DNA of 64,000 nt from Terriglobia bacterium (GCA_965198225.1 CBDAOY010000006.1:608001-672000); one strand, 5' to 3'. Positions 1,424-37,803 are shown, counted from the stretch's first letter. The notes: generated from the letters alone by a model not told the origin. Made by a program: numbers and translations.

Positions 1424-1452
1424 AGGCGGCACGACTATACGTCCACGTGGAT
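1424..1452. repeat. Junction palindromic site, right half (CGACTATACG-TCCAC-GTGGAT)
   Basis: Matches the right arm of the ~40-bp site family. About 55 nt at 1432-1488 also resembles 12858-12913. Confidence 0.7.
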
Positions 1453-1518
1453 TGAAACAGTCTGGCGAATCGGAGAGTCTGCGGCGGGTCAATGGTTGTC
1501 AGGCTTCGATCTGAGCGG

Positions 1519-2892
1519 TCAGCGACCTTGGCGGTGGAGAACCGTTGAATCGCCGAGCGGCGGGTACATCGCAGGCGGTCGGTCGAAGTCGACCCACTCG
1601 ACGTCGGCCCAAAGCACGTACTCGGGGCGCTCACTGGGGTCGACGAAGATCAGCATTCCGGCATTCCCCTCGCCGAGGTCGCCGGTGCGTTCGAGTTGCA
1701 GCTCCTCGCCGCTATGGAGGATCACCCTGGCACGCTGGGCGCCGCGCTCTTCGCGGCCGGAGGGGAAGATCGAGGCGATCAGGCCGAAGGGGATGGTGTA
1801 ATTCACGCCCTCGGATGGGGCGTCGAGCGTCTCGGTGGTCTCGCTCTCGTCGAGGTCGTAGACCAGCCGGCCGGCGAGGCGGCGGCCGGCGCGGGTGGTG
1901 ACGCTGCCCGTGAGCGGGCGCCCCGGCGGGAAGTCGCCGAAGGCGGGGCCGCTGCCGCCGGGACTGAAGTCGACGCGTTCGAAGGCGTCCCAGGAAATCA
2001 GCACCCGGCCGTAGCGTCTGTCGTCGACGTAGATCCCGAGGTTGCCCTGCCCGACTTCGCGGGTGCCGGAGAGGACGATCTCGCGGCCGTCGAGGAGCGT
2101 CACGAGGGAGCTGTCGCGCGAGTTGCGCGCGATGGCGCCGATGATGTCGAAACGAAGGTTGAGCTCACCGTCGGCGGTGTAGCCGTCGAGCTCGTCCGTA
2201 CCGACGCACTCGTTCCGGTTCCACTGGACAAATCCGGTGAAGTCGCCCCCCCGCGTGCGCACCGTACCGTGCAGCCGGTCGGGGGCGGCGTCCAGTCGGG
2301 CGGTGGGGAGTAGCTCGATGCTGCGGATCCGCCACTCGTCGAAGTCCACAACGCCGCGCCTGGGGTCCCACACTCGCACGCCGTCGGCGAGGTCGTCGGA
2401 GGAGAAGCGGTCGAGGTCGAACACGGTTCCGCTCTTGAGAGTCACCCGGAAGTCGCGGCCGCGCGCCTCGATGCGCGCGATGTCGCCGAAGCGCCCCATG
2501 AAGGGCCGGCCGAGGTCTATCTGGCGCTCCTGGCTGACGATCTGGACCCCGAAGATCTTGATCGAGCGGCGCTCCTTGAGCTGCTCGGGCGGCGCGTGGG
2601 GGACCCAGGGATTCTCGTCCTTGAAGCCGTTGAAATAGTCGCCCCAGAACGCCTCCTCGTCGCCCCCCCAGCGCAGCCGCCCCTGGTAGGTGGCGCCGTC
2701 ATCGGTGGTGATGCGGCCGTAGAGGAAGCCCTGCTGGGCCTCCGAGGCCGCCGCCGCGGTCGGGGGGAGGGCCGCGGGCACGGTGGCCACCCCGGGGTCG
2801 ACGTCCTGCTCGCGGTCCCGGCGGCCGGTGGCCAGGACGAGGAGGACGAGCACGATGGCGAGGGCCCCCCCGGCGATCGTGGCTCTCTTCAT
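1519..2892 (-). CDS. Membrane-anchored or secreted hypothetical protein with three internal repeats
   Basis: 457 aa with an N-terminal hydrophobic helix. Repeats begin LYGRITTDDGATYQGRLRW / LHGTVRTRGGDFTGFVQW / LTGSVTTRAGRRLAGRLVY. Confidence 0.8.
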   Translation of the reverse strand: MKRATIAGGALAIVLVLLVLATGRRDREQDVDPGVATVPAALPPTAAAASEAQQGFLYGRITTDDGATYQGRLRWGGDEEAFWGDYFNGFKDENPWVPHAPPEQLKERRSIKIFGVQIVSQERQIDLGRPFMGRFGDIARIEARGRDFRVTLKSGTVFDLDRFSSDDLADGVRVWDPRRGVVDFDEWRIRSIELLPTARLDAAPDRLHGTVRTRGGDFTGFVQWNRNECVGTDELDGYTADGELNLRFDIIGAIARNSRDSSLVTLLDGREIVLSGTREVGQGNLGIYVDDRRYGRVLISWDAFERVDFSPGGSGPAFGDFPPGRPLTGSVTTRAGRRLAGRLVYDLDESETTETLDAPSEGVNYTIPFGLIASIFPSGREERGAQRARVILHSGEELQLERTGDLGEGNAGMLIFVDPSERPEYVLWADVEWVDFDRPPAMYPPLGDSTVLHRQGR

Positions 2893-3034
2893 GGTCAGTC
2901 AGCCCTCCCGCAGAAGACACGAGTCTCCTGCCGTGTTGTCGGCATACCTCCCTAACGCTCGGGGCGGCGGAAGATTACGCTGGGATGGCCAACTTCGCCA
3001 TCTCGGCTGACGTTCCAACCCGCATGATGGCTGT

Positions 3035-4429
3035 TCACTGGAGTTCTTGTCCGATCGCGACCAGGTTCGCGCTCGTGCGGAAGTAGAGAACCCCCTGCGA
3101 AATCGCCGGAGTTGCAAAGCACGGGCCGCCAATGCTGTTTCGTGCGAGCAGCTTGAAAACCGGACCGGCCTCGAGCACGTACACGTAGCCGTTTTCAGAT
3201 GCGCAGAACACCTTGCCGTCCGCCGCCACCAGCGACGAGACGATCGCCGCGCCCGGGTCCAGTCGCTTCTCGTACATCCGTTCTCCCGACTTTGCGTCGA
3301 AGCATCTCACGACACCGGTTTCGTAGCCGAAGTAGATGTAGTCGCCGTATACGACCGGTGTCGAAAGGTAGGAGCCGCCCCGCGTCGCGTGCCACAGGAT
3401 CGAATTCGATATCCTGGCCCGCGGCGTCGGTGTAATGTCCCCGTGCGCGTCGGGATGCACGACGAATATGGGCGATGAGCTTCCGTGCGAGCTGGTAATG
3501 TAGATCCAACCGTTCGCCACAAACGGGGTCGGCACAGGATTGTCGCCCCCACCTCGAAGGCGCCAGAGCTCCTGGCCCGTCTCCAGATCGTAGGACACGA
3601 TCCACGGCCAGCCATTTGCGACCACCTGGGTCCTGCCCGGGCCGGCATGAATCAGGGGAGTGCTCCAGCTTCCCCGCTCGCACACGCCCTTTCGGGACGC
3701 TCTCCAAAGCTCCTTACCGTCGGACAGGCGCAGGACGACCAGAAAGGGATCATCCGGATCGTCACACACTAAAGCAACACGATCGTTGTGAATCACGGGC
3801 GAGCTACCGTATCCCCGCCCGACACCGAATACCGTAATGTCGATGACTCCGAGATCGCGGCTCCACAACAGGCGGCCATCCAGATCGTAGCAATACAACC
3901 CTTCCGATCCGAAGAAGGCGACCAGTCGCCGTCCGTCGGTCGCCAGGCTCGTATTGGCGTGGGTCGCCTTCGCGTGGCGGTTTGCGCGTGGTCGTCCGAC
4001 TCGCGCCGACTGTCGCCAGATCTCCCGGCCGGACTTCTTGTCATAGCAAAGCACCACCCAGCTCTGCTCGCCCCTGTCGTCGGCGGCCTCGTTGCTACCT
4101 GTCCAATCCCGACGGTTCACTCCGGCATCACCACCAAGCCTGAGCGGGACCCGGCCGTCCTTGGCGATGGCTGTTAGAAGGAATATCCGCTCGCCCCACA
4201 ACACGGGGCTGGAGTGGCCGAGTCCCGGGATCGGCGACTGCCAGCGAACTCCGGCCACTTCACCGGCCGTTTCATCGACATCCCATGATGTGCGGACTGG
4301 AAACCCGTCCGCCACACCCCGCCCGTTCGGGCCCCGGAATGACGGCCAGTTCTGAATGTCCTCGGTCTCTTGAGCCAAGAGCGGAAGGGCGGCGACGCCC
4401 TGCAGGAATCGTCGTCGGGACAGAAGCAT
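3035..4429 (-). CDS. Tat-exported PQQ-binding-like beta-propeller protein
   Basis: SRRRFLQ twin-arginine signal, 'NWPSFRGPNGRG', 'GHSSPVLWG', repeated Trp-docking motifs. GGAGG RBS upstream of ATG 4429. Confidence 0.9.
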   Translation of the reverse strand: MLLSRRRFLQGVAALPLLAQETEDIQNWPSFRGPNGRGVADGFPVRTSWDVDETAGEVAGVRWQSPIPGLGHSSPVLWGERIFLLTAIAKDGRVPLRLGGDAGVNRRDWTGSNEAADDRGEQSWVVLCYDKKSGREIWRQSARVGRPRANRHAKATHANTSLATDGRRLVAFFGSEGLYCYDLDGRLLWSRDLGVIDITVFGVGRGYGSSPVIHNDRVALVCDDPDDPFLVVLRLSDGKELWRASRKGVCERGSWSTPLIHAGPGRTQVVANGWPWIVSYDLETGQELWRLRGGGDNPVPTPFVANGWIYITSSHGSSSPIFVVHPDAHGDITPTPRARISNSILWHATRGGSYLSTPVVYGDYIYFGYETGVVRCFDAKSGERMYEKRLDPGAAIVSSLVAADGKVFCASENGYVYVLEAGPVFKLLARNSIGGPCFATPAISQGVLYFRTSANLVAIGQELQ

Positions 4430-4563
4430 GCGCTCCTCCACGGTCAGAATGCCAGACGCATGTTACTGGTGAGCGCGTTTTCGTTCAATCACAGTCTGAA
4501 CCCCAGCTGTCCCCAACGGAGACGTCTACCCGGGCTTAGTACAAATTCAACCACCGATCTTGC

Positions 4564-6185: not shown

Positions 6186-6344
6186 CTCACCCCCGCACTC
6201 TACGCTTTGGCCGCGGGAGCAGAGCCCCGACTATTCCAGTTTTTCGACTGTCACAAACGGGTCGGGATTATTGGGAGGCCGCGGAAATGACGCTCCAATG
6301 GATCTGGCCGACGGCCGGAGAGATCGCCCATGAAGATCTGGCTG

Positions 6345-6470
6345 TGGCGTCGATAGAATGATTCGTCTCCGTCTTAGACCAAAAGGGCACTACGCCTCCT
6401 TGCTGTTTTATCTGGTGCGTCTCGCCTGTTGGAGGAAACGGCCGCACGTGAATCTGGCCCTCAGCCTCGC
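6345..6470 (-). pseudogene. Fragment of a TolB/PD40 propeller, as found in Ser/Thr kinase-TolB proteins
   Basis: Reads EGQIHVRPFPPTGETHQIKQQGGVVPFWS, then DGDESFYRR in a shifted frame. Confidence 0.6.
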
Positions 6471-9568: not shown

Positions 9569-9737
9569 GCGGCTCCTTCTCGTGTCGATCGGTCGCTCGG
9601 AAGAGGGGCTTGTCGACGAGATGCACTTTTCCGTATCGTCGACTTGAACGAAGCCGCTGGCGCGGCGGACGCTACGCGTGTGCTGAGCGAAGAGTGATGA
9701 GCCCCCGATAGAGTGTGAGCCTCACAAGGAGGCTCAC

Positions 9738-10628
9738 ATGACGAAGCTGCGACAACGGATGCTGGAGGAACTCCAGCGCCGGAACTACTCACCCGCTACG
9801 ATTCGGCTGTATCTTCACGCGGTCGAAGACTTCGCCCGCTACTTCGGGAAGTCCCCCGACAAGCTCGAACAGGAACAGATGCGGCAGTACCAGCTGCATC
9901 TGCTTCAGGAGCGCAAGCTCGCTGTCGACACCATCATCGGACGGATCGCCGCACTCCGGTTCTTCTACGTGAAGGTGCTTCGCCGTCCCTATCACCAGGT
10001 CGATCTGGTCTATCCGAAACAGCCGTCCCGGTTGCCCACGATTCTGAGCGAAGAGGAAGTGGCGCAACTGCTGGCCTCCGCCAACAGTGCCTATCACTTC
10101 GTCATCCTGATGACCTTGTATTCGACGGGACTGCGGCGGGCCGAGCTGTGTCGTCTGAAGGTCGAGGACGTCGATAGCGAACGCATGGTGATCCATGTGA
10201 GGCAGGGTAAAGGCAATCGCGACCGCGACGTGCCGCTGTCACCGAAACTGCTGGAAGTCCTGCGCGACTACTGGCGTTGGCGGAAACCCGGCGAGTACCT
10301 CTTCCCCAGTTTGCTCCGGACCCGGCCCGGACAGCCCATCGATGTGAAGACGGTTTGGTACGCCGTCCAACAAGCCGCCCAACGTGCCGGCATCAAAAAG
10401 AAAGTATCCCCACATACGCTGCGCCACAGCTGGGCCACCCACCTGCTGGAGAGGGGAACCGACCTGCGAACCATCCAGCTCCTGTTGGGTCATGTCGATC
10501 TGGAAGCGACGACCCTCTATCTCCATTTGTCTCAGGCGCACATGCAGCGCGTGGTGAACCCGATCGATTCTCTTCCGGTTCCCGATCTGGGACCGTCTCC
10601 CCGTCTGAGAAAGAAGAAAGGCGAATGA
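9738..10628 (+). CDS. Tyrosine recombinase/integrase
   Basis: YSTGLRRAE, GKGNRDR, HTLRH, LLGH and catalytic Y in TTLY. Integron-integrase-like N-terminal domain. Confidence 0.95.
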   Translation: MTKLRQRMLEELQRRNYSPATIRLYLHAVEDFARYFGKSPDKLEQEQMRQYQLHLLQERKLAVDTIIGRIAALRFFYVKVLRRPYHQVDLVYPKQPSRLPTILSEEEVAQLLASANSAYHFVILMTLYSTGLRRAELCRLKVEDVDSERMVIHVRQGKGNRDRDVPLSPKLLEVLRDYWRWRKPGEYLFPSLLRTRPGQPIDVKTVWYAVQQAAQRAGIKKKVSPHTLRHSWATHLLERGTDLRTIQLLLGHVDLEATTLYLHLSQAHMQRVVNPIDSLPVPDLGPSPRLRKKKGE

Positions 10629-11794
10629 GCCGGCCCGCCGTCGAGGTGGCCGACATCGTCCGCGCCCGGGTTCGAGGTTTCCTCCAGCGTCACCGCCTCG
10701 GCATCCAGAAGCTCAAGGTCCTGCGCGCCATCCTGAACTGTCGTACTGCGGCTCTGGGTGGCCACATCGACCGGTGTGCCGATTGTGGCCGGGAGTCCGG
10801 AATCTCGTTCAACTCCTGCCGCAACCGCCACTGCCCGAAGTGTCAGACCCAGGCCCGACGACGGTGGCTCGAAGCACGAGAAGCCGAACTGCTGCCCACC
10901 CCCTACTTCCACGTCGTGTTCACCGTCCCGCACCAGTTCCATCCGTTCTTCTTCCACAACCCTGCCCTACTCTACAGCCTGCTGTTTCGCAGCGTGGCCG
11001 ACACGATGATCGAGGTGGCGGCCAATCCGAAACGACTCGGCGCCCGGATCGGCTTCTTCGGCATCCTGCATACCTGGAGTCAGAACCTGGAGTTCCATCC
11101 CCACATCCACTGCGTGGTACCGGCCGGCGGACTGGCTCCGGATCAGTCCCGTTGGATTCCGGGTTCTGGGCGCTTCTTCCTCCCCAAGCAGGTGCTCGCC
11201 CGAGTCTTCCGTGGCAAGTTCATCGACGGGCTCGGGCGAGCGATCGCCGACGGTTCGCTCGAACTGTCCGGCTCGATTCGACCCTTCGGCGAACCGCAAC
11301 ACTTTCGGCGGTTCCGCCGCCAGATCCATTCCCGCAACTGGGTCGTCTATATCAAACGACCCTTTGGTGGCCCCGAACAGGTGCTCCGCTACCTGGGCCG
11401 CTACACCCATCGGGTCGCCATCTCCAACCATCGATTGATCTCGTTTGACGGTAACCGGGTCCGGTTCCGTTGGCGGGATTACCGCAATGGCAACAAGAGT
11501 CGCATCATGACACTCGCGGCCGACGAGTTCATCCGACGGTTCTTATTGCACGTTCTGCCGAAGGGCTTCGTCCGCATCCGACACTTCGGATTCATGGCCA
11601 ACTACCGCCGGTCGGCCGCCTTCGCTCTCTGTCGCCAACTCCTCGATGCCATGCCGAGGGTCGAATCTGACGAAACCACCACCTCGAACTCTTCCTGGTC
11701 GTGTCCGCACTGTCAGGGACCGATGACTCTCATCCAACGCTTCACCGCTCTGCAACTCGTAGCGAGGCTCGCCTTCCAATGCGATACGTCCTAA
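10625..11794 (+). CDS. IS91-family (Y2 HUH) transposase with Zn-binding domain
   Basis: NSCRNRHCPKC Zn motif, HPHIH HUH motif, YLGRY, RIRHFG, C-terminal CPHC. Confidence 0.93.
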   Translation: MSRPAVEVADIVRARVRGFLQRHRLGIQKLKVLRAILNCRTAALGGHIDRCADCGRESGISFNSCRNRHCPKCQTQARRRWLEAREAELLPTPYFHVVFTVPHQFHPFFFHNPALLYSLLFRSVADTMIEVAANPKRLGARIGFFGILHTWSQNLEFHPHIHCVVPAGGLAPDQSRWIPGSGRFFLPKQVLARVFRGKFIDGLGRAIADGSLELSGSIRPFGEPQHFRRFRRQIHSRNWVVYIKRPFGGPEQVLRYLGRYTHRVAISNHRLISFDGNRVRFRWRDYRNGNKSRIMTLAADEFIRRFLLHVLPKGFVRIRHFGFMANYRRSAAFALCRQLLDAMPRVESDETTTSNSSWSCPHCQGPMTLIQRFTALQLVARLAFQCDTS

Positions 11795-12216
11795 TCCTCC
11801 TTCACAAACCGACGACCGACGTGCGGTTCAGCCACGTCCTCGCCGGAGTGTGCCTCCGCTGCAAAATCCCCTCAGATCCCGTCCTTTCAACCCACCGATT
11901 CCCCGACCCAACTGCTTTCCGATTCACACCATCGACGCGGTCATCGACCGCCGGTCCCCCTCCTCGCCCCAACGCCACTCCAGATCCGGCCCGCTTCCGG
12001 CTACTTTCTCCATAGCCCACCGCGTCCGCCGCATTCGGCCAGCGCCCTCCTTCAAGTCTTGTTATCGAAACTGCCGCGGTGGGAACTTCTCGCTCATCCT
12101 GTGGCCGCGCTCGCCGCGGCACTTCCGATGAACGCTAACGACTATACGCCCGAGTGACTGCCTGCATGCCGGCCAAGCCGGCTCCAGCCGCTTGTTATCC
12201 GCCGTCCTCCGTACCG

Positions 12217-12759: not shown

Positions 12760-12838
12760 ACGGAGTGCAAGTGTATCGCTCTACGTTTCAATCCTGAGAG
12801 GAATCGGGCGAGAGCCGGCGCGATGTACTCTTGCAGGA

Positions 12839-12879
12839 ATCCTCATCTCCGTGAAGGCGATCTACACGTCCATGTGGAT
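12839..12879. repeat. Junction palindromic site (41 bp)
   Basis: ATCCTC-ATCTC-CGTGAAGGCGATCTACACG-TCCAT-GTGGAT. Confidence 0.75.
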
Positions 12880-13047
12880 TGAACACTCCGGCGAACTGAG
12901 ATGTCTGGTGGGGTGAGAAGGCTCGCACAGCGAGGGCCAGGGCCTTCGCACCTCAGCCCGATCGTGACTGCGGTCGGCCGTGGTGTTCATTGTCGAAACG
13001 AAAGATAGGATGATTCGGGTGTTTCGACACGTACTATTGTTGAGAAC

Positions 13048-19787: not shown

Positions 19788-20069
19788 ACAGAGGCAAGAG
19801 GCGCCCAAACAGGATTAGTAGCTTGCGCTACGGAGTCCAGCATACAGGCCAGAACGCAGGAGCTGCAAGAAGACGATCCACGGCCATATCTTCCTCCCGC
19901 CAAATGACAAAGAGGTATTTCACTGGCAATCATGTCTTGATGGACGGGTGCGACCGGCTCGAACTCAAGAGTCGTCGACAGAGCCGAACGTGCTGGCGAG
20001 GTGTTCCTCGACCGCGAAGCCAGCAGCGGACGGAAGAGCACAAGCGGCCTGAAAGGCCACATCGTCGAT

Positions 20070-20109
20070 ACCGGTAACGGAGTATCGGCGACCATACGGA
20101 CAAGTGAAA
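20070..20109. repeat. Junction palindromic site (40 bp, left hexamer degenerate)
   Basis: ACCGGT-AACGG-AGTATCGGCGACCATACG-GACAA-GTGAAA. Confidence 0.65.
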
Positions 20110-20317
20110 TAGCTAAACGCTGCGTAGGAAGAGTCGGCGACGGTCTTCGCGGGATTGGCTGGTGACCGGTCGTTACCAGGGACGTGCTCCGAGCCGCTAC
20201 GCCAGACGATGTGGCACAGCAAGCTGCTCGAATCGCCGATCGGAGCGCAAGTTGCCGACACCGGGATCAACCTTGAGACCGACTTACGTGGCGTCAGAAG
20301 TCGCCCACAAGGGCTAG

Positions 20318-21854
20318 GAGTCTGCGCGGCAGAGCGCAAAGAACTCGGACTGATTGGGATTTGAGAGGGTCTTCGGAGGAGAATCGACCGATTCTTCCGA
20401 TACGACGAGTTCAGAGTTGTACGGACACCCGTAATTGGCCGTGTATCGGGTCTGCCGGGTTGCGGTTTTCCGGATTATGCCCATTCGATCTTCCCGTTCA
20501 TCCGTCGTAAGTTCACCGCCAGAGTGACCAGATTCCACTCCCCGGTCACTTTGTCCAAACCGCGTAGACTGAACTGTCGGAATCCGAGCACCGACTTGAT
20601 CCACCCGAAGGGCGGCTCACCAATGTGCTTTCGGGCCCGGTAGCGGTCACGCCCACGCTTGGTTTTCATCTTTCTCATCATCCGACCAACAGCGGTGTCT
20701 TTGGGTGGGAGTGGGGCACGGGCGAGATCCTTCTCGCGACCCATCGCAACATACCCGTCAATCTGACGTTGTTCCAACATCCCCAGATTTGACTCGGATC
20801 GATATCCCGCATCGGCCAGCACGCGGTCGGGACGCTCCCCCAGATTGTCGCTCAACGCATCCAGCGTGGGTTCCAACTGCCCCACATCCGATGCATTGTC
20901 AGTCACCGTTGTTGCCACGATGATCCGGGCCTGGGAATCCACCACCGCTTGCGCGTTGTAGCATTGCTGGAACCCTTCGGTGGAGGTCTTCATCATCCGG
21001 CTTTCCGGGTCGGTGAAGTTGTCCTGGGCCGTGGGTTTAGGTTCCCCCATGGGACGTTTGAATGGCTTCTTTCCGCATCCGGGTTTGTGATCTTTGGTGT
21101 TCCGTCCCGCTTCCTTGTCCGCGGCCATCTGACGTTCTTCGAGCCGCTTCATGGCCGCCTGTATCGTGGCCAGGCGCTTCTTGCGCGTGGCCAACCCGTC
21201 GGGCAGTTCGTCTCCGCGCCGGTCCTTGCCGTATCGCTCGTCTTCGTCCTCATCGGTCGCCTCGGCCCGGTTCAACAGATCCCGAATCTGTTCACCCAAT
21301 TCGGTCTCCTGCTTTTTCATGCGTTCGTAGCTCATCGCTTTGCGTTTGCTTGCATTCGCCCGCATCTTGGTCCCGTCCACCGCCACGGTTCCCATCTTCA
21401 CCAGTCCCGCTTCCCGCGCCATCATCACCACTTGCACAAACAGGTTTCCGAACTCCTCAAGATGCAGTTTGCGAAAATCCGAGATCGTTCGGTGCGCCGG
21501 AAAGTTCTCCGCTCCCAACATCCGGAACGCTACGTCGTCGGTCAACTTCGCCGCGATCTTCCTGGACGAGAACACTCCGGTCGCGTACCCATAAATCAGC
21601 ACCTTCACCATCATCCGCGGATCAAACGCCTGATTGCCCGGACCCTCGGTTCCATACCGCTGTTCGAACGCGCTCAAATCCATCGCGTCCACCGCGTCCG
21701 ATATGAAGTACGACAGGTGATCTTCGGCCAACCAATCTCTCAACGACGGTGGCATCAGCAGTGTTTGTTCTGGGCTATAAGTTCGATAGGTTCGTGCCAT
21801 GACATATCTTCGATCTTTATCCGCCCAATTCCGGTCCTTCTGCCGCGCAGACTC
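20318..21854 (-). mobile_element. IS1182-family insertion sequence
   Basis: Perfect 16-bp terminal IR GAGTCTGCGCGGCAGA. CTAG target duplication at 20314-20317 and 21855-21858. Confidence 0.92.
20475..21800 (-). CDS. IS1182-family DDE transposase
   Basis: 'AVDGTK', 'NFTDPESR', 'LADAGY', 'EPPFGWIK' motifs. Confidence 0.95.
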   Translation of the reverse strand: MARTYRTYSPEQTLLMPPSLRDWLAEDHLSYFISDAVDAMDLSAFEQRYGTEGPGNQAFDPRMMVKVLIYGYATGVFSSRKIAAKLTDDVAFRMLGAENFPAHRTISDFRKLHLEEFGNLFVQVVMMAREAGLVKMGTVAVDGTKMRANASKRKAMSYERMKKQETELGEQIRDLLNRAEATDEDEDERYGKDRRGDELPDGLATRKKRLATIQAAMKRLEERQMAADKEAGRNTKDHKPGCGKKPFKRPMGEPKPTAQDNFTDPESRMMKTSTEGFQQCYNAQAVVDSQARIIVATTVTDNASDVGQLEPTLDALSDNLGERPDRVLADAGYRSESNLGMLEQRQIDGYVAMGREKDLARAPLPPKDTAVGRMMRKMKTKRGRDRYRARKHIGEPPFGWIKSVLGFRQFSLRGLDKVTGEWNLVTLAVNLRRMNGKIEWA

Positions 21855-21976
21855 CTAGCGAGCGTGTCTTCATCTGCCTTCCCGCGTCCTTGTCAAAAGG
21901 GTTTCTTGGCTGTACGCTGCCTCGTGGCCCACCAGGGAGCCTGTATGTCAGATTCTTGGTGCATGAAGGAGACGCG

Positions 21977-23185: not shown

Positions 23186-23346
23186 AGTGCGGTCCCGGGG
23201 GGCTTGACCACCACCGGTTCGGAAGAGATGCTCTGTGCTCATGGCGTCAGTGGAGATGGGCGGGCCCACGACCGTGGAAACCCAATTGGCACACCGCCGG
23301 CACGACAAGTCGAACCCCCTTTCAAAAACGGAGGCTCTCAACCACG

Positions 23347-23383
23347 ATCCACGTTATCGTATAGGCATTACAGTCATGTGGAT
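23347..23383. repeat. Junction palindromic site (37 bp)
   Basis: ATCCAC-GTTAT-CGTATAGGCATTACA-GTCAT-GTGGAT. Confidence 0.75.
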
Positions 23384-23740
23384 TGTCGCGGGCTCGGTTT
23401 CTGCTAGCTATGTTAACGCGCGGACCATCGGCATCGAATCGACTTGCGGGAAAAACCATCAGAAATCGTTAGGCCGTCCGGCGTGAGGTCGTAGTCCCTG
23501 TATTGATTGAGTAGGATGAACCCTTTCAAAGTAACACCGTGTTAATCTACCAACGGACAGAGTCCGTTCCTTCCAGAAGATCCGTCGTTTGCAATCCCGC
23601 CCCGGCCGGTCTATCCTCAAAATGATCTTTTTCTGAAAGGGTCTCTTTTTTCTACGATTCTTTCCTCGACTGTCTTTCACGTCACCCATTCTCGTGACCG
23701 TCGACCGTCAAGAATAAGAATCCCCGATTCAGGATCTCTT

Positions 23741-24660: not shown

Positions 24661-24785
24661 CGGTAACGATCGGTCGCCTTGTGTTTAGGAACGCTCGATT
24701 GACCTGCCGCTGACCAGCCTGCACGTGTTACTGCCTAGCTAGTGTGACATCTGGATGGCCCTGTATTCATGGGGTCTTCGTGAGA

Positions 24786-24825
24786 ATCCACTTTTCCGTG
24801 TCGCCGACTTTACGGCAAGTCGGGG
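24786..24825. repeat. Junction palindromic site closest to the E1 target
   Basis: ATCCACTTTTCCGTGTCGCCGACTT matches the E1 left flank ATGCACTTTTCCGTATCGTCGACTT at 22/25 positions. It continues TACG. Confidence 0.8.
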
Positions 24826-25260: not shown

Positions 25261-25296
25261 CGACGAGATCCACAAGGAAGTATCGGCGACATATCA
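25261..25296. repeat. Junction palindromic site, left half
   Basis: CGACGAG-ATCCAC-AAGGA-AGTATCGGCGAC, compared with the E1 left flank CGACGAG-ATGCAC-TTTTC-CGTATCGTCGAC. Confidence 0.75.
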
Positions 25297-25625
25297 GGAA
25301 TTAGCGGGAGTCAGTCGTTCGGTGCGCGTACTTGCGACGATTGATTCGACGAAACTAACGAATACAGGTTCGAGTAGGACTCTCGCGTTCGGGCTGTTGT
25401 TCCATGAGTACCAAACAGACGGAATCGGATAAAACTTAGCGATGAGGTGCTTGAGCTCCTCAAGGCCAGACGGTTTGTGTGACGTTGGCGCGTCAAGCAA
25501 GGTTTTCGCCTTCGCGGGGCGGGGGGTCACTCTTGCGGAGCAGACCCGAGCGCCGACAGCTACACTAAAACATTGTCACGCTCGGCCAACGTTATTGTAT
25601 TCTCTGTCCGGACTAATCGGAGGGA

Positions 25626-27799: not shown

Positions 27800-27833
27800 A
27801 CAGCCTCCCTGAGCGATTCAGACAACCACCCGA

Positions 27834-28017
27834 TCACTCGAAGTCCTGGCTGTGCTTGTCGGTGATCGCGTCGTGGCCGATCGTCGTGCCGATCATGGAC
27901 CCGCCCGGCGTGACTTTGATTCTGGTGCGTCTTTGGCTCTCCACACCTCGCCCATGCCGCCCGTTCCGAGGCAGAAACGATTTGGTAGGGTCCGAGTGTC
28001 GACCCGGGCTGGATCAC
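27834..28017 (-). pseudogene. Two tandem N-terminal relics of Ser/Thr kinase genes
   Basis: MIQPGSTLGPYQIVS/(shift)LGTGGMGEVWRAKD, followed by MIGTTIGHDAITDK. Confidence 0.7.
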
Positions 28018-28176
28018 CCGTAGATAAGACTATGAAAGGGACTTGTGGTCAATCAGAAGGTCACTTCCCTGAAATACCGCTTTCTCGGAAACGTACCAAT
28101 GCCCGGTCGGCGCCGGTCGGTCATGGACGTGGCTGCTTCTCAGGCGAGGGAACGGATCGTCACGCGCACGCTGAGA

Positions 28177-29490: not shown

Positions 29491-29540
29491 AGTCGATCAG
29501 CGGCGAGTCGAACTCTTCGAGACCTTGAATCTCCTACATC

Positions 29541-29585
29541 ATCCACATCTACGGTTAGCCGGCACGACTACTCGCTCAAGTGGAC
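29541..29585. repeat. Junction palindromic site (45 bp)
   Basis: ATCCAC-ATCTA-CGGTTAGCCGGCACGACTACTCG-CTCAA-GTGGAC. Confidence 0.75.
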
Positions 29586-29707
29586 TGTTCGGGATCCCCG
29601 GTCTTGATCAGAACCGATTTGATGGACATAGATGTCTGGATCGGTCAGCATCGCGCTCAAACGTTTCTGGTGATGAAACGACGGCTTCCAATCCAGAGGA
29701 GGGTGTC

Positions 29708-30028
29708 ATGAAGGCCTGGGGACTCGCCTTTCTTGTTCTTGCTTACGCCCCGCCCATCCCCGCCGCCCCACAGCAGGTCGGCGGCGTGGAGTTGATGGAA
29801 CTCACCGTCGCCCAGACCCACACAGCCATACTGGCCCGGACCCTCACGGCGCGGCAGCTCGTGGAGGCGTACCTGGCACGCATCGACGCCTACGACAAGC
29901 AGGGCCCAACCATCAACAGCCTCATCATGCTCAACCCCCGATGCCTGGAGCGCGCCGACGAGCTCGACGCCTACCTCGTCCGCACCGGACGCCTCATGGG
30001 GCCGCTCCACGGCATCCCCTTCATCGTC
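29708..30028 (+). pseudogene. Truncated amidase (N-terminal ~107 aa only)
   Basis: Signal peptide, 'LVEAYLARIDAYD', 'GPLHGIPFIV'. Homology ends where the catalytic KD should follow. Confidence 0.8.
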
Positions 30029-30267
30029 ACCAGCATCGCTTTCCGTCTCCCTCCTCGACCTCGCCCGCAAGACCCATCGGCGATGGTGCCGATAGCACTG
30101 TTAAAGGCCACTTAGACTCCCGCGGGACGCTCAGGTCACCAGTCCAGGCCGAAATTCGTTTTGTATTGCTGTCGTTTCCTTCTTCGCCTGTCACTTCTGG
30201 ACTAATCGTCGCACTCTGGGCACTCGGCCGGCTGTGGGCGAGCTCACATTCGGACAATGTCCCATAA

Positions 30268-31873: not shown

Positions 31874-31950
31874 TCGCTGTGAGGTGAGCTTCAGAGGGGC
31901 GAGTTCCCCTTCCGCGATCGGCTGTCCGCCAAGCGGGGCTTCCGGACACA

Positions 31951-31990
31951 ACCCACTCTGGTTGTATGGCGGCTCCACGTCCATGTGGAT
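31951..31990. repeat. Junction palindromic site (40 bp)
   Basis: ACCCAC-TCTGG-TTGTATGGCGGCTCCACG-TCCAT-GTGGAT. Confidence 0.75.
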
Positions 31991-32018
31991 GCTGTAGGTT
32001 GCCGCTGGAACGCCGAAC

Positions 32019-32473
32019 TTACTTTGGTCTTTTTTTTGGCCCGGACTTTCGGCGCTTCCGCGACGGCGAACGGGTTCCCGCTTTGCTGGTTACAAACTTG
32101 TAGGCCATGCCGAGCAAGTCCCGCAACACATCAGGATTGACGCTAGACAGGCGAACCAGAACGACGTCGTAGCCGACATAGTGGTCCGTCACGTAGTAAA
32201 CATCAGGGGCATCAGCGAGCAACTGGTCGCGAACATCGAAATCCACCCGAACGGCAAGTGAACCGGGTTCGGCCGAGCGATTAGCTGGCACACATGCCAG
32301 GAGTTTTCCGCCTACCTTGAGCGCGGGGAAGCCGTACGCGAGGTGTGGTTGGCGTGTGGACGGTGCCTTCAAACTTCAGCAGAACCCCCTGATCGATCCG
32401 TGCTTTCCTCCATACCAGGCAACGCAAGTCCGATATTCCGTACGGTGTCGAAGTTGATTGTGCTTTCGGGCAT
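32019..32473 (-). pseudogene. MmcQ/YjbR-like protein disrupted by a 59-nt insertion
   Basis: MPESTINFDTVRNIGLALPGMEEST|insert|AYGFPALKVGGKLL...YYVTDHYVGYDVVLVRL. Confidence 0.8.
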
Positions 32474-32547
32474 TGGTCAGTGCGATTTCCGAGGTGTGGT
32501 TGGCGTGTGGACGGTGCCTTCAAACTTCAGCAGAACCCCCTGATCGA
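32339..32547. repeat. Exact 58-bp direct repeat (32339-32396 and 32490-32547)
   Basis: CGAGGTGTGGTTGGCGTGTGGACGGTGCCTTCAAACTTCAGCAGAACCCCCTGATCGA occurs twice. Confidence 0.95.
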
Positions 32548-32723
32548 GGTAGATCAAGAAGGAATCGCCCACACCGAAGGGTTCTACCGGGCCGACCTGC
32601 CAAACGAAGACCGGCGCGTCGCCCAGGCGCTCCGCTGCCACACTTGCGGGCCGGCACCATGCGAACATCGACGGAGCCCTCGAGGTCCGACGGCTCTCGG
32701 GACGCGGATCCGCAGACCGTTCC

Positions 32724-33581
32724 CTACTTGGGCACTGTCCGCCGCCACTCGTCGTACTGGCGCCGGAGATCCAACAGCGGGTTTTCCGCCCCACGCTCGG
32801 TACGCACGGAGAGCGCGAGCCAGGGCGCTTTGTCGGTACCCGCGTCCGTCATACCGATGTTCTCGGCGGCGTAGGGTTCGTCACCACCGCGCGCGACCAG
32901 GATGGCCGCCATGGACGTGGTCTGCCGCACGTTCCCCTGATTGCAGCGGACGTCGCCGCCGGCGATGGATCCGGCCTCGAGAGCCCGAATGAGCCGGTCG
33001 GGCAGTGTGTTGAAGCCCGCCGGATCGTCCCAACGGTAGGCATCGAGGGGATTCTGAACCACCTCCGAGCTGGCCAGGGTGTTCCCCTGCGAGCTCACGC
33101 CTCGGCTGGGGTCGGCCATCACTCCGGCGTAGCGGGCGGCGCCGTCCTCGCTGGCGACCATCCCCTGCCGGAGGGGGGTGGTGTAGCCGGCGGTGCGCAC
33201 GAAACCGTCGTTCATGGTGACCACTCCGTACTGTCGGCGCTCGAGCTCGCTGTCCCACTCGGGGTCCGTCACCCGCGCGATTACCTCTTCGGCGGTGAGC
33301 CCCTCCTTGATCGCCTCGAACACGCGGTTCCGGTTGTCGATGTTGAAGCCCGCCTGAGTCGCAGCGGCCCCCTTTCCGGGCACCAGTGCCGCCACAGCGT
33401 CCCCGTTCCTCGTGACGCAGGAAGACACCGCGACCCCCACGTCGCCCGTCTCCGGATCTACTCCCACGATCGACCACGTGGTCATGTCCATCTCGGTGGG
33501 ATACTCGGTCGCCTCGGGGGCGACACAGGCGGCGAGAAGCAGGCCGCCCAGCAGCAGGAACATTCTCTTCAGCGTACGCAC
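32724..33581 (-). CDS. DUF1028 (Ntn-hydrolase-like) lipoprotein
   Basis: Lipobox LAAC, 'TWSIVGVDPETGDVGVAVSS', 'RQYGVV', 'QGNTL', 'AGGDVRC'. Confidence 0.85.
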   Translation of the reverse strand: MRTLKRMFLLLGGLLLAACVAPEATEYPTEMDMTTWSIVGVDPETGDVGVAVSSCVTRNGDAVAALVPGKGAAATQAGFNIDNRNRVFEAIKEGLTAEEVIARVTDPEWDSELERRQYGVVTMNDGFVRTAGYTTPLRQGMVASEDGAARYAGVMADPSRGVSSQGNTLASSEVVQNPLDAYRWDDPAGFNTLPDRLIRALEAGSIAGGDVRCNQGNVRQTTSMAAILVARGGDEPYAAENIGMTDAGTDKAPWLALSVRTERGAENPLLDLRRQYDEWRRTVPK

Positions 33582-33635
33582 GTCTATTCCTCCAGTTCGC
33601 AGGTTGACGTCCTCAGTGGGCGAGTCTGAAACCGG

Positions 33636-33675
33636 GCCGAATCACCCGTATATAAGACTACAGTCGGGGGTCAAC
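33636..33675. repeat. Junction palindromic site next to a kinase N-terminal relic
   Basis: Core CGTATATAAGACTACAGT-CGGGG-GTCAAC. ATCACCCGTA(T/G)ATAAGACTA recurs at 28013-28032. Confidence 0.55.
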
Positions 33676-33916
33676 AGCAATCAGAGAGTCACCCGGTCGT
33701 CATAGCGCCATGCCGATAAGCAGGAAGCCCGTTATCAAAGGGGCTTTCGACAGAAGACAGTTTGCAGCATAGGCGACTTCTCGGAAGTTGAGAACAGATC
33801 GTTTATTGGGCGTTGAGAATTTGATAGCGCTTAACTCACTCCTCTAGTATCTTTTGCCGAGTTTTTCACGGCTTTTTCAGCAACACAATATAACGATGGA
33901 ATCCGGCACAAAACTC

Positions 33917-33956
33917 CGCCACTACGAGATCTCAACGCCCTTAAGTAAGGGTGGAA
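33917..33956. repeat. Junction palindromic site, degenerate (40 bp)
   Basis: CGCCAC-TACGA-N18-TAAGG-GTGGAA. Confidence 0.5.
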
Positions 33957-34105
33957 TGGGTGAAGTGTGGCCGGGATACGAAGCCGCGACGGCCTGCGGC
34001 CGCGCGCGGGTTGTTGTCGGATTGAGTTGATTCAGGCTAAGGTGCCTTAGCGCGGCCTCTATTAACCAAGTTTGAATTATCAACCTGAATATTAAGGAGC
34101 GGAGA

Positions 34106-34894
34106 ATGGCAACGACGTGGCGAGTTTCTGGACGCATACAGGTTTCGGTGAATGAGCGCGAATCTGAGGGCAGAGTTCGTGAGACCGGAAATATGCAAGG
34201 TGTAGAAGTAGAAGTATTTGGTTCCCTTTTGAATTCGGGTAACACTAGAGACACCTGGTGGAGCCTTGAAACTGTGATTCACGAGGTAATGCACTTGTGG
34301 AACTATGATCACAACACCGGCACGTCCAATTGGCTCCAGGCGGTTTGTGATGGCAACACCCACTCTTTCCAGGAAAAGCCCGCAATCGCGTTTCACGAAG
34401 GATTTGCTGAGTACGCAATGGACGATCTTCTTCATGAGATATGGGGACTGAACCGTGTGGAACCCTTTAATAGGCATAGCGTGCGAAACAGGAGTGGGCA
34501 GGCGCTTACCAATCTAAAGGTCGTGGAAGGGAGCGACGAAGGTGTCACAAATGCCCTCCACACGCTGACGACTCCTGATATCTACACGCGAACCTTCGGG
34601 ACACGGACTAGCACCACCCCGAGGGGCAGTCGAGCGGGCACTACCACTACGACCGGCAGGAATTGCCCCCGCAGCCCCAACCTCGATTTGTGGGATGTCC
34701 TAAAAGTTTTCAAGCCCGCGCCACGGTCAGGTTGGAAAACTGCTTGGCAAGTGGGCAGGCCGTCCTATGGCATCGTCCGATTCTTCAAGCGCGCGGCAGA
34801 TGTTCTGCCTTCGTTTGGTTCACAAGCCGAGAGATTGTATCTGGCTCTGATAGACCCAGACTCGAATGTGGAACCGCAAAGCCGCTGCAGATAG
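34106..34894 (+). CDS. Hypothetical protein with an HExxH zincin-like motif
   Basis: 'VIHEVMHLW' and downstream 'AFHEGFAEY'. AAGGAG RBS. Lower GC than its neighbours. Confidence 0.6.
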   Translation: MATTWRVSGRIQVSVNERESEGRVRETGNMQGVEVEVFGSLLNSGNTRDTWWSLETVIHEVMHLWNYDHNTGTSNWLQAVCDGNTHSFQEKPAIAFHEGFAEYAMDDLLHEIWGLNRVEPFNRHSVRNRSGQALTNLKVVEGSDEGVTNALHTLTTPDIYTRTFGTRTSTTPRGSRAGTTTTTGRNCPRSPNLDLWDVLKVFKPAPRSGWKTAWQVGRPSYGIVRFFKRAADVLPSFGSQAERLYLALIDPDSNVEPQSRCR

Positions 34895-34948
34895 GCGGAT
34901 AAGCGGTATAAGCAGGGTCCGACGACTATGGCAACACCACGCGCTTGC

Positions 34949-35005
34949 ATCAACATCGTCCTAAACTGGTTTGAAGAACTGAAGGAACGGGTGCCAGTTT
35001 CCTGA
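34949..35005 (+). pseudogene. Isolated C-terminus of a kinase-TolB family protein
   Basis: INIVLNWFEELKERVPVS*. Confidence 0.7.
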
Positions 35006-35571
35006 TTTTCCGGGTCAAGTCCTGATAAATCATCTTGTCGGACATTGACCACCAGGCCGTAACGGCTACCCGTAGAAGGCCCCGTAGCAAAGGACGACAG
35101 ATTACCCGCCATAAGTCGCCTAGCGTTTAGGAATGAGCAGCATCAATGACCAAAAAACTGGCTTACGGTTTCGAACGCAAGATCTAGGATAAGTACTATT
35201 AGGAGAGTAACTTGAGGTCAATGAAAAGGTCAGATGCTCGTAATACGCCATGTTTCTATCGGAGATGGTCCGGGACCGACAGTGGCAGGAATGATCCGGG
35301 GCATGTCGGATAGAACGGTTTGAAGTGAGGCGCAGGCGCGGTCGGGAGGGAAAGCCCTATGGGTTTTCAATCGAGGGGCCGGGGGGATATACAAGCAGCC
35401 GACTCGATGTTGGGACATGGAGTGGGCCGAACTTTGCGTTGCGCTGCCCGGTTCTGAGGTTTCCGAAGCATTCGGACCGGACTCGAAAGGCCCAGTTGAC
35501 AGATCCCAGACACACTGGCGCGGTGCAGTCCAGCGGGCCGCGAAGTGGACGTGGTTGTGGAGCATTGACGG

Positions 35572-36756
35572 TTAGGTACTGTCGAGAATCGGGACCGGCC
35601 TGGATGTGATGAACCCGAGTTGGAGCGCGGTGAAGCGTTCGACGATGCGCATGGTTCCGTGACAGAGCGGACACGGTTCCGGCGGAGTGTTTGGGGGCGG
35701 AGAGTCCGGCTCCGACGTGGGTGTCTGGCCGAGGAGTCGCCGACACAGCCCGAGCATCACGGCGCGTTTCCGATTGGCCATCCATCCGAAGTAACGGATG
35801 CGGGGAAAGCCTTTCGGCAAGACGTGGTGTAGGAACCGCCGGAGGAACTCCTCCGGGGCCAGTGTCATCGTGCGGGGTCGTCCGTTGTGGCGGTAGTCCT
35901 TCCATCGGAATGTGACGCCGTCGGAGGTGACGCTGATGATGCGATGGTTAGAGATCGCCACCCGGTGCGTGTAGCGGGCCAGGTACTGGAGCACGTGTTC
36001 GGCACCGCCGAAGGGCGGCTTGGCATAGACGACCCAGTCCCGGTCTTTGAGGTCATCGATGAACTGCTGGAAGCGGGATGGGTCGGCCAGTTGCAGGCAT
36101 TCGCCGTGGAAGGCGAGCGTCTTGTTATCGAACGCCTCAGCCAACCCATCGAGGAACTTCACTCGGAAGACGGCACTGAGTTTCCGGACCGGAAGCAGGA
36201 AGTCGGACCGCGACGGATGGACCCACCGGTCGTGATCCGGTGAGGGTCCGCCACCGGGAACGACGCAATGGATATGGGGATGCCGTTCCAGGGTCTGTCC
36301 CCAGGTGTGCAGGATGCTGAGGAAGCCGGCTTCGGCACCCAGATACTTCCGTTGAGCCGCGACCTGGATCAAGGCGGCGGCACTGGCGTGAAACAGGAGC
36401 CGGTAGAGGACGCGCTTGTTCTGCCAGATGAGTGGGACCAACTGATGCGGCAGGCTAAAGACCAGATGGTAGTAACCGACCGGCAACAGTTCCTGCTGCC
36501 GTTTCTCGACCCAGGTGTTTCGGGCCTGGGTCTGACACTTCGGACAGTGGCGATTCCGGCAGGAATGGTATAGAAGTGTGTCGTGGCCACATCGTTCGCA
36601 TCGTTTCCGGTGACCGCCTAATGCTTGGGTCCGACAACGGGTAATCGCATTCAGGACTTTGACCTGGGGCCAGGTCAGCGCCCGCCGATACCGGTTTCGG
36701 AATCGGTCTCCTGCGATGCGAACGACCTGGGCCACCTCAAAGCGTGGCCGGCTCAT
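35572..36756 (-). CDS. IS91-family HUH transposase
   Basis: SCRNRHCPKC, HPHIH, YLARY, RIRYFG, CPLC. Confidence 0.93.
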   Translation of the reverse strand: MSRPRFEVAQVVRIAGDRFRNRYRRALTWPQVKVLNAITRCRTQALGGHRKRCERCGHDTLLYHSCRNRHCPKCQTQARNTWVEKRQQELLPVGYYHLVFSLPHQLVPLIWQNKRVLYRLLFHASAAALIQVAAQRKYLGAEAGFLSILHTWGQTLERHPHIHCVVPGGGPSPDHDRWVHPSRSDFLLPVRKLSAVFRVKFLDGLAEAFDNKTLAFHGECLQLADPSRFQQFIDDLKDRDWVVYAKPPFGGAEHVLQYLARYTHRVAISNHRIISVTSDGVTFRWKDYRHNGRPRTMTLAPEEFLRRFLHHVLPKGFPRIRYFGWMANRKRAVMLGLCRRLLGQTPTSEPDSPPPNTPPEPCPLCHGTMRIVERFTALQLGFITSRPVPILDST

Positions 36757-37630
36757 CGCTTTGTCTCCTCAACAACGGCAGGCAGGTGCAACTGATCCAG
36801 GGGGTTGCGTGCCATCTCCAGGTGACGGCGAGACAGCTGGAGATACAGCGTGGTATCGGACAACCGGCTGTGTCCCATCAAGAGCTGGATCGTGCGCAGG
36901 TCGGTCCCCGACTCAGCAGATGCGTACCGAAGCAGTGGCGCAGCGTATGGGGACCGACTTTCTGCTCAAGACCGGCCCGTTCCGACGCCCGACGGACCGC
37001 ATACCAGACGACCTTGTCCGAGATCGGCCGTTTCACACCCCGGTGTCGGGCACTGCTGGGAAACAGATACCCCGCCGGCCGTTTCAACAACCAGTATTGC
37101 CGCAGGGCTTCCAGCAAGCTCGGGCTCAACGGCACATCTCGGTCCCGACGACCTTTGCCCTGGCGGATATGCACCAGCATCCGCTCACTGTCGATATCGG
37201 TGACCTTCAACGTCGATGCTTCTGTGCGCCGCGCTCCGGTTCCGTAGAGCACCATCAGGATCGCCCGGTGCATCGGTGTCACTGCCGACTGGATCAACTG
37301 CCCGACTTCATCGGGGCTTAGGATCGTCGGTAGTTTCCGGGCCGTCTTGGGAAACGGCAGGTCATCGATCCCCAGATCGGCTCGACGCAGCACCTTCTTG
37401 TAGAGGAATCGCAAGGCGGAGATCCGCGCCTCCACCGTGTTCGGGGCCAGCTTCTGCTTCCGCAGCATGTGCAGCTGGAACCGTCGCAGTTCTTCGGCTC
37501 CCGCATCGGCGGGAGACTTGCCGCAGTATTGGCGGAACTGGTCGAACGTGATCAGGTAGCTGCGAATCGTTCCAGGCGCGTAGTTGCGTCGCCGGAGCTC
37601 GTCCAGCAGTCGTTTTCGTAGTGGGGTCAT
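36753..37630 (-). pseudogene. Tyrosine recombinase, frameshifted at ~36914
   Basis: Adding one G after HTLRHCFGTHLL restores ESGTDLRTIQLLMGH...TTLY and the ATGA overlap with the transposase. Confidence 0.88.
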
Positions 37631-37764
37631 AAGCCACCTCCTTATGACCGCCACTGTATGGGATGGGATCTATCTACAGGACGCCGACTCCGAGCGCCTG
37701 CGGCTTAGTTCTAACCGCCGATACGGAAACCTGGAAACCGGCTGAAATGGGGCTTCAGGCCGCG

Positions 37765-37803
37765 AGCCACTTTGGAGTATCGGCGACTTGTCAAGAGCTG
37801 GAA
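37765..37803. repeat. Junction palindromic site (39 bp)
   Basis: AGCCAC-TTTGG-AGTATCGGCGACTTGTCA-AGAG-CTGGAA. Confidence 0.65.

Follow-up and report, generated by a model that had tools for sequence, protein, structure and literature searches.

The 64,000-nucleotide stretch analysed here (the window; G000:C6:608001-672000) comes from a Terriglobia bacterium whose genome, G000, comprises 6.4 Mb in 9 contigs at 60% G+C. Two complete genomes from the same genus, G002 and G003, run collinear with the window beyond ~39.5 kb, with a nucleotide identity of 71-78%, whereas the genes of the window's first 39 kb match scattered places in G002, G003 or a further relative, G001, at 84-93%. Since the scattered accessory matches are closer than those of the collinear core, we take the accessory region to be real and to have been exchanged more recently than the core. 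Between the genes of this region lie copies of a palindromic site of ~45 bp, and two insertion sequences (ISs) of the IS91 type, each with an Xer-like tyrosine recombinase, are inserted in such sites. The original prediction for this sequence had recognized the sites, which it compared with integron attC sites and interpreted as a candidate gene-cassette system; the two elements and their enzymes had been overlooked.

The first element carries a tyrosine recombinase gene (9738-10628, plus strand), encoding a two-domain protein of 296 amino acids with Phage_integrase and SAM_4 domains, and a Y2 HUH transposase gene (10625-11794, plus strand) whose start overlaps the recombinase gene by 4 nt. 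The transposase matched PF04986 (9.3e-63), PF14319 (7.2e-31) and NF033538 (432.6 bits against a cut-off of 125), which places it in the IS91 family with a zinc-binding domain. The best NCBIfam model for the recombinase was the XerA/'integron integrase' model NF040815 (223 bits; cut-off 220), while the integron model TIGR02249 matched in two stretches and, at 202.9, stayed below its cut-off of 265, as did NF011946 (134.9; cut-off 435). Its nearest solved structures were the XerA-type 4a8e and 5hxy (E 2.9e-43 and 1.5e-42), ahead of IntI4 and XerD. G000 holds ~9 copies of this 2.5-kb element at 98-100% identity. The left end, upstream of the genes, reads TTGAACGAAGCCGCTGGCGCGGC and forms a GC-rich stem-loop; the right end, ...CCGATGAACGCTAACGAC, closes in AACGAC, and there are no terminal inverted repeats. 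The joined ends (...GCTAACGAC+TTGAACGAAGCC) contain direct TGAACG repeats and no inverted repeat. Among near-identical copies, the first 1-2 nt of the left end differ (AA, TA or CA). The second element encodes a transposase at 35572-36756 and a recombinase at 36878-37654 that continues in another frame and is hence frameshifted; its proteins share 53-57% amino-acid identity with those of the first.

Two halves of the site, ATCCAC-N5-(C/A)GTATCGGCGAC and TATACG-N5-GTGGAT, recur at the positions originally reported. Exact-pattern searches yielded only 3 and 1 matches, and because the motif was too degenerate we switched from regular expressions to profiles; the site at 23346..23388 matches the ATCCAC...GTGGAT pattern exactly. 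Alignment of 19 intact sites (A1), together with iterated nhmmer profiles, yielded nnATCCAC-nTTnC-CGTGTnGGCGAC-TATACG-GCCAn-GTGGATT. We write the site consensus as ATCCAC-N5-CGTRTNGGCGAC|TATACG-N5-GTGGAT, in which the bar marks the break point. The best-kept columns of the alignment were those of the centre, GGCGAC, together with TAC. The arms are symmetric, with conserved boxes at 1-6 and 12-17 nt from this 6-nt centre. Between the outer boxes lie 28 nt in 13 of the 19 sites (range 25-29), a nearly fixed distance at odds with the centre of variable length, 15-26 nt, that had been described.

We then examined whether the arms of the 19 sites covary. The proposed outer and inner helices paired in 61.1% of cells, compared with a mean of 64.5% when partners were shuffled among sites (500 shuffles), and two-sided changes occurred in 2 pairs against 5.2 expected; no covariation of the arms was detected. 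By box, pairing was found in 66% of cells for the outer boxes, 56% for the inner boxes and 48% for the 5-nt spacers, which are partly conserved (left NTTNC, right GCCAN), a correction to the earlier distinction between complementary boxes and non-complementary spacers. The palindrome consists of two arms, each conforming to a consensus, rather than of a stem maintained by compensatory change. The missing covariation would fit arms that are re-assorted at the central break, or arms bound by protein in duplex DNA. Pair counts neither demonstrate nor rule out folding, and because they gave no covariation we dropped a selected hairpin as something established. No T-run was seen at the sites, and an Rfam scan of the whole window returned zero families at the gathering score.

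In G000, nearly all copies of the 2.5-kb element sit at the centre of a site, immediately after the CGAC of ATCCAC-N5-CGTRTNGG-CGAC|TATACG-N5-GTGGAT, in a single orientation relative to the asymmetric centre. At the left junctions, AT[CGT]CAC was found exactly 17 nt before the junction in 7 of 8 cases, the flank reading AT[CGT]CAC-N5-NGYRTNGNCGAC up to the element; at the right junctions, the flank begins (N)ATACG-like and [GC]TG[GA] occupied +12 to +15 in 10/10. Because the copies are 98-100% identical while their flanks differ, the arms, or half-sites, must belong to the target. CGAC was present at both element junctions, in G000 and in the G002 lineage with 87% transposase identity, and there was no target duplication.

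Comparison was extended to 40 IS91-type copies from relatives, whose ends we mapped; transposases were multi-copy in several of these genomes. In the 87% lineage of G002, the left flank was a full arm in 5 of 7 copies and a partial arm in 1 of 7. A ~54% lineage in G005, which resembles the window's second element, occupied the same type of site in 3/3. The 63% lineages of G002 and G015 were inserted after ...CGTT in another context, often AACAC-TTCGG-CGTT|TATCGGGAG, and their own ends were GCGTT or ATGTT. The elements thus show the signature of the IS91 family, a tetranucleotide common to target and own end: CGAC, or CGTT/GTT in the 63% lineages. Lineage by lineage, the left flank of the target appears to resemble the element's own right end (CAC-N5-...-tetranucleotide), a reading to which no statistic is attached. 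Several 63%-lineage elements (G002 L021, L022, L025 and L029, and G015 L042) stand in head-to-tail tandem, separated by one shared CGTT, the arrangement expected from rolling-circle read-around.

To count sites, we searched the window without filters using model R1, whose seeds are the 19 intact G000 sites (6 lie in the window), and applied the nhmmer A1 profile of the same sites to the genome and to a Markov-1 shuffled genome; the seeds are inside the genome counts by construction. A1 found 21, 28 and 40 loci at E<=0.01, 0.1 and 1, compared with 0, 1 and 1 in the shuffled genome. The claim of a palindromic motif recurring between unrelated genes was thus borne out, and background frequency in shuffled DNA, which had been named as a refutation, is not what we observed (28 genomic loci against 1 shuffled at E<=0.1). 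The sites lie between genes and separate unrelated gene modules, as had been proposed; gene calls were crude (open reading frame (ORF) length and G+C at third codon positions), and gene borders are approximate throughout. The G000 sites form five islands, at C4 55-73 kb, C6 295-342 kb, C6 583-646 kb (the window), C7 939-946 kb and C9 763-820 kb, with a lone extra site at C6 737 kb.

Within the window (table below), R1 recovered all seven sites that the original prediction had called full. None of its four weaker sites was recovered: 24621, 33636 and 33917 had no match at E<=10 and 26995 had one only at E 7.5; position 33636 falls in the repeated 5' region of a kinase-like gene. Among its six half-sites, those corresponding to 1432-1456 and 25267-25298 stood, and those at 2945 (E 2.2, other strand), 6290, 13731 and 30268 did not. 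R1 added the IS-split site (9620-9645/12139-12159), 33758-33785 and the minus-strand 37713-37735. The absence of full sites from the core beyond 39.4 kb, noted by eye, was confirmed: past 37.8 kb there were zero R1 matches with E<1, the best being at 40955 with E 1.6.

Table. Sites, elements and module in the window, with coordinates counted from its first nucleotide. E values are for matches to model R1.
Feature	Position	Strand	Basis
Right half-site TATACG-N5-GTGGAT, then TGAAAC...; left half substituted by other sequence ending GGCACGAC	1432..1456	+	E 1.1e-4, model positions 22-46
Left arm and centre ATGCAC-TTTTC-CGTATCGTCGAC of IS-split site	9620..9643	+	E 0.015 (match 9620-9645)
2.5-kb IS91-family element	9644..12143	+	Pfam, NCBIfam, alignment of copies
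Right arm TATACG-CCCGA-GTGACT of IS-split site	12144..12160	+	E 0.49 (match 12139-12159)
Full site between AAA_28 gene (minus) and DUF3784 gene (plus)	12838..12882	+	E 5.6e-9
Site with degenerate outer left box	20068..20112	+	E 5.3e-6 (match 20079-20112)
Full site, short centre	23346..23388	+	E 4.2e-7
Site with degenerate right arm, 37-nt deletion relative to two paralogues; left border of 0.5-kb module	24785..24825	+	E 2.4e-8
0.5-kb module, three genome copies at 96-97% identity	24826..25290	+	Site centre to next site centre
Left arm and centre, then degenerate right arm	25267..25298	+	E 0.014
Full site, longer centre (...GGCACGAC)	29541..29587	+	E 6.5e-3, not a seed
Full site downstream of beta-lactamase-fold gene	31950..31994	+	E 1e-5
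Left arm and centre, weak right arm	33758..33785	+	E 0.019
Second IS91 element with recombinase	35572..37714	-	Left end 37714; right end below 35572
Left arm and centre TTCCAG-GTTTC-CGTATCGGCGG, abutting left end of second IS	37715..37737	-	E 0.055 (match 37713-37735)
Left arm and centre, degenerate right arm	37764..37795	+	E 2.3e-4

The sites are co-oriented. In the window, all are on the plus strand with the sole exception of the one abutting the second IS, and neighbouring G000 site pairs within 15 kb share a strand in 18/20. By contig, sites on C6 (297-737 kb) are 14/14 on the plus strand and those on C9 9/9 on the minus strand. Only at C6 737 kb does the strand of a site agree in sign with the local GC skew, which is weak; elsewhere the two are opposed. 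On C6 the skew flips sign near 650 kb, inside the window. A replication-strand bias was considered and not established; the minus strand of G002 carries 9 of 10 listed sites, spread over four positions far from one another.

Among 40 relatives, R1 found sites in 15 at E<=0.01, and 11 genomes had at least 4 matches, with maxima in G021 (30) and G015 (28). An IS91 transposase was present in 9 of these 11 genomes against 4 of the 25 genomes without a site, counts that come from kin and not from independent genomes. From these matches, the site family appears to be spread across several genera of Terriglobia in step with an IS91-type element. In G021, 10-11 plus-strand sites are spaced at 1.4-4 kb over a 25-kb array whose modules consist of 1-3 genes of unrelated functions in both gene orientations. 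In G038, which belongs to another family, the array runs from an FGE-sulfatase through a major facilitator superfamily (MFS) gene, an aldo-keto reductase and a DUF1553+DUF1501 pair onward; the pair is kept together, and sites follow gene 3' ends. Co-oriented arrays in other genomes agree with the earlier idea of cassette-like modules.

Some unit borders coincide with site centres. Similarity among the copies of the 0.5-kb module begins directly after the CGAC of the left site and ends at the CGAC of the right site; 2 of the 3 copies carry an IS at the right-hand site, and the third, in the window, does not. A ~70-nt 'minimal module', composed of a right arm, 28 nt and a left arm, recurs beside element copies and at 37715-37795 of the window. 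One module common to G003 and G000 breaks exactly at the arm/centre border. G003 similarity stops at 12840, the start of the site at 12838..12882. The DPPIV and AAA_28 genes are neighbours in G000, G002 and G003, with a site and an element between them only in G000. From this comparison and from siteless homologues, we conclude that the sites are joints added in this lineage, not ancestral gene flanks.

We interpret the sites, with moderate confidence, as docking points and probable surrogate ends of IS91-type rolling-circle transposons that carry an Xer/XerA-like recombinase, the recombinase probably being the protein that binds the arms. The islands resemble gene-cassette arrays but are not integrons. 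We observed oriented insertion after the central CGAC, a tetranucleotide shared with the element, lineage-specific targets, co-oriented arrays and some borders at site centres. The steps between could be as follows. The HUH transposase would cut the site, and likewise its own end, just after CGAC. An upstream site may stop read-through (one-ended) transposition, and neighbouring modules would then travel with the element. Repeated site-directed insertion would build co-oriented arrays of modules, in which every joint would be a hybrid of the left arm of one unit and the right arm of the next. The symmetric arms would most simply be bound by the element's own recombinase, which could give target specificity to the transposase or resolve its products. 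A wider version, which we regard as rather unlikely, is a distributed cassette system run by the rolling-circle transposase: each site would act as an origin-like end on one side and a terminator on the other, any module, whether or not it contains the element, could be copied out into the CGAC of another site, and the recombinase would read the arms. If true, it would be an integron-like gene-shuffling platform on HUH chemistry in several genera of Terriglobia.

Several observations weigh against an assembly of modules by IS91-type transposition at these sites. G038 (96% complete) has ~20 near-perfect palindromes and no PF04986 match, and G001 has 5 sites and no IS91 transposase match in an assembly of 230 contigs; sites can therefore be kept, or come about, in the absence of a resident element. 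Inside the G021 array there was no IS91 or recombinase gene, and beside it no recombinase or integrase gene. Related single IS copies in G020, G017 and G018, and one G000 copy (C7 left flank), lie outside clear sites. The varying first 1-2 nt of the left end are not predicted by a precise HUH cut. The two copies of the 0.5-kb module with an IS could equally be independent insertions into the same favoured site. The original prediction expected synteny breakpoints to map to the sites, and some do so at site centres; most genes shared at 84-98% across genomes, however, break at coding-sequence edges, and G002 and G003 carry the same genes without sites, which also counts against a simple cassette model. 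Site-centre borders as a rule for shared genes accordingly failed for the most part, and processes other than site-centre exchange have also shaped the mosaic. In contigs of four public runs (four studies) with near-identical sequence, we found no 9643-12144 joint (the empty site) and no circle joint among the listed 15 of 35 joints; as the contigs break at repeats and cannot show rare forms, this absence weighs on neither side. Contigs of all four runs join 22790 back to 14578 via the same ~33 extra letters, which may be a population variant or a homologue from another organism, and one X6 contig skips 14324-14907.

The main alternative, possible if unlikely, assigns the movement of modules to the other enzyme. 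The sites would be tyrosine-recombinase core sites, two 17-bp arms around a 6-bp asymmetric GGCGAC, and the IS-borne Xer-like enzyme would move modules as circles while the transposase only spreads the recombinase gene; dif modules or tandem integrative elements would be comparable to such a cassette or accretion system. The scheme suits a palindrome made polar by its asymmetric centre, co-oriented arrays and a recombinase in every element of this kind, and central breaks that re-assort the arms would also explain the absent covariation. The recombinase is nearest to XerA in the structure comparison; the dif site on which XerA acts as a homodimer is symmetric. The 1-2 nt that vary beside CGAC at the left junction are what an overlap-region heteroduplex would give. 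The joined element ends, however, are not an inverted repeat, unlike a partner core site, a point that counts for the element and not for the modules. The 6-nt arm boxes are split by 5 weakly conserved nt, and a 296-residue two-domain enzyme would have to span 17 bp. Also against this scheme are the frameshift in the window's second recombinase copy and the lack of a module circle among the contig joints described above, and the shared CGAC/CGTT is a trait that the IS91 family shows without any recombinase (PMC3189936).

We find it doubtful that the sites are a REP-like or terminator-like family of intergenic palindromes that serves the host, for instance at mRNA ends or in protein binding, and is only a preferred target of IS91 elements. 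Several other IS families prefer repetitive extragenic palindromic (REP) sequences as targets. The main support for such a host function is G038, with its near-identical palindromes and no IS91 transposase; there, sites lie between functional units and after gene 3' ends, and in G000 a site replaces the native DPPIV-AAA_28 spacer, which has none in G002 and G003. Against it, the sites number only ~30-40, in five accessory islands and not in the core half of the window, whereas true dispersed palindromic repeats in the same genome number hundreds. The arms of the 19 sites do not covary, there is no T-run, polarity is uniform along arrays, and the spread of the family over genera parallels the IS. 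A known REP family had been named as a refutation; with 28 loci in five islands, none in the window core and no Rfam match in the window, the sites do not behave as one.

It is very improbable that an integron integrase recombines the sites in folded single-stranded form, as attC sites of the ordinary or a divergent kind: the box-spacer-box layout (R''-spacer-L''...L'-spacer-R'), the co-oriented arrays and the integron-integrase model as the second-best NCBIfam match of the recombinase are outweighed by boxes that read ATCCAC/GTGGAT and not ...AAC/GTT... in the 19 aligned sites, IS and module borders after the central CGAC and not in the outer box, absent compensatory pairing, TIGR02249 and NF011946 below cut-off and no integrase gene at the end of the G021 array. 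Integron attC was excluded on four tested features, namely boxes, crossover position, compensatory pairing and an IntI beside the array. The original prediction was right that these are not ordinary attC sites, as the boxes, the central break point and the recombinase all differ; its proposal of attC-like recombination of a folded strand did not survive, the breaks being central and the arms without compensatory change. A small remainder of the probability goes to readings outside those listed here.

Returning to IS91-type transposition into the sites, we compared the elements with known systems. IS801, of the IS91 family, is reported to insert at GAAC, GGAC, CAAG and CGAC, has a conserved GC-rich left-end stem-loop and undergoes frequent one-ended transposition (PMC3189936); oriIS is located downstream of the gene, and DNA next to the element can be mobilised by one-ended transposition (PMC5737581, PMC5714925). 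Our elements share with IS91, IS801 and ISCR the Y2 HUH transposase with a zinc-binding N-terminus, the lack of terminal inverted repeats and of target duplication, the tetranucleotide common to the target and one element end, and the GC-rich stem-loop upstream of the gene. Those elements are known to capture adjacent DNA through one-ended transposition (PMC3189936, PMC5737581, PMC5714925), which we propose here as well. Given the shared tetranucleotide, the stem-loop and the lack of terminal inverted repeats, the layout follows the IS91-family canon, with the exception of a far larger target: the centre of a ~40-bp palindrome and not just 4 nt. Also different are the Xer-like recombinase upstream of the transposase and the targets in co-oriented arrays between modules. 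Elements of the IS91 and ISCR type are known to capture genes while showing almost no specificity for their target. An IS91 subgroup with a tyrosine recombinase of no known role is listed in ISfinder/TnPedia, and to our knowledge the role of the enzyme there is unexplained.

Integron cassette arrays share with the islands a two-box-spacer-two-box palindrome, co-oriented sites between unrelated genes and a recombinase akin to IntI and Xer. They differ in box sequences; in the islands the break is central and sequence rather than structure is conserved, and there is no IntI insertion and no attI/integrase platform, genes face both ways and many modules are multi-gene. In Acinetobacter, pdif modules (XerC/XerD) are likewise accessory modules bounded by short Xer-type sites and shuffled between replicons (PMC7399989, PMC6449649 and PMC13141974). 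A pdif site, however, is 28 bp (11-6-11) and served by host XerC/XerD, whereas the sites here are ~40 bp, have an extra outer box, are chromosomal and go with an element-borne recombinase and an HUH transposase. The pdif sites flanking a module alternate, or are inverted, in orientation; here the flanking sites are co-oriented. REP/RAYT systems (Y1 HUH) are alike in linking intergenic palindromes to an HUH enzyme (PMC5714925). The sites here differ in being low in copy number and clustered in islands, and the enzyme in being a Y2, multi-copy and mobile, not a single domesticated gene. Palindromes also serve as IS targets in other systems.

Gene capture by IS91/ISCR and palindrome-targeting ISs are already known; what appears to be new is the strict, oriented ~40-bp target and its arrays, for which we found no description. 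In the full-text literature, with most subscription journals and TnPedia outside its scope, we found neither a strict oriented ~40-bp palindromic target for an IS91 element with a recombinase nor arrays of such a target between accessory modules in Acidobacteriota, and a classification of tyrosine recombinases (PMC8138268) does not mention IS91. Strict oriented insertion gives the recombinase a testable function, as target reader or resolver. The defined ~40-bp target could be used to study or harness rolling-circle insertion, and the system is a candidate mechanism for accessory-gene assembly and exchange in soil Acidobacteriota.

Some sequences lie beside the sites. A ~40-nt conserved element, GACCGATTTGATGGACATAGATGGTCGGATCGGTCAGCAT, with a 7-bp inverted repeat, occurs 20-60 nt to the right of several sites (window 29620-29665; C6 295.2, 327.5 and 348.8 kb; G003 array 33600). 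Another right-hand extension, GTGGAT-TGAAACAG..TGGCGAATCGAGAG, follows different sites, for example at 1451-1500 of the window. Right arm and extension read GTGGATTGAAAC at 1445-1456 and GTGGATTGAACA at 12871-12882. GTGGATTGAAAC appears to match the 3' end of type I-C CRISPR repeats; GTGGATTGAA has 12 genome occurrences and is never in an array. A Ser/Thr-kinase-like 5' region (~50 codons, ..LGKGGMGEVW.., with a promoter-like upstream sequence) is repeated on the reverse strand at 27926-28092, 33569-33700 and ~10 more places in the islands, at ~78% identity and ~50 nt from left arms of sites. Its VAIK codons read CTTGATGGCGAC on the site strand and therefore mimic the site centre, giving weak profile matches.

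Other repeats and elements were found nearby. A ~71-nt palindromic repeat with a perfect stem (GTGTAGGTGCGGTCTATGACCGCACA...), at 44970-45040 and 57596-57665, occurs hundreds of times genome-wide, sometimes in tandem, and also in G001-G003; it is the genome's true dispersed REP-like family. An 81-nt repeat at 30032-30112 has >80 copies on all large contigs at 93-99% identity, with a second set at ~85%, and looks like a miniature inverted-repeat transposable element or a REP-like family unrelated to the site. It truncates the amidase-like ORF at 29525-30115. A split amidase gene was considered and rejected: 1-1251 merely runs off the start of the window, the gene continuing in relatives, and the ORF at 29525-30115 is a distinct fragment. 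A DDE (DDE_Tnp_1/DUF772) insertion sequence at 20308-21868 has ~15 copies at 99.4-99.9% identity, and the same IS type lies inside the G021 array. Lastly, a perfect 58-bp direct repeat (32339-32396 and 32490-32547, 151 bp apart) lies in or near a YjbR-like ORF region.

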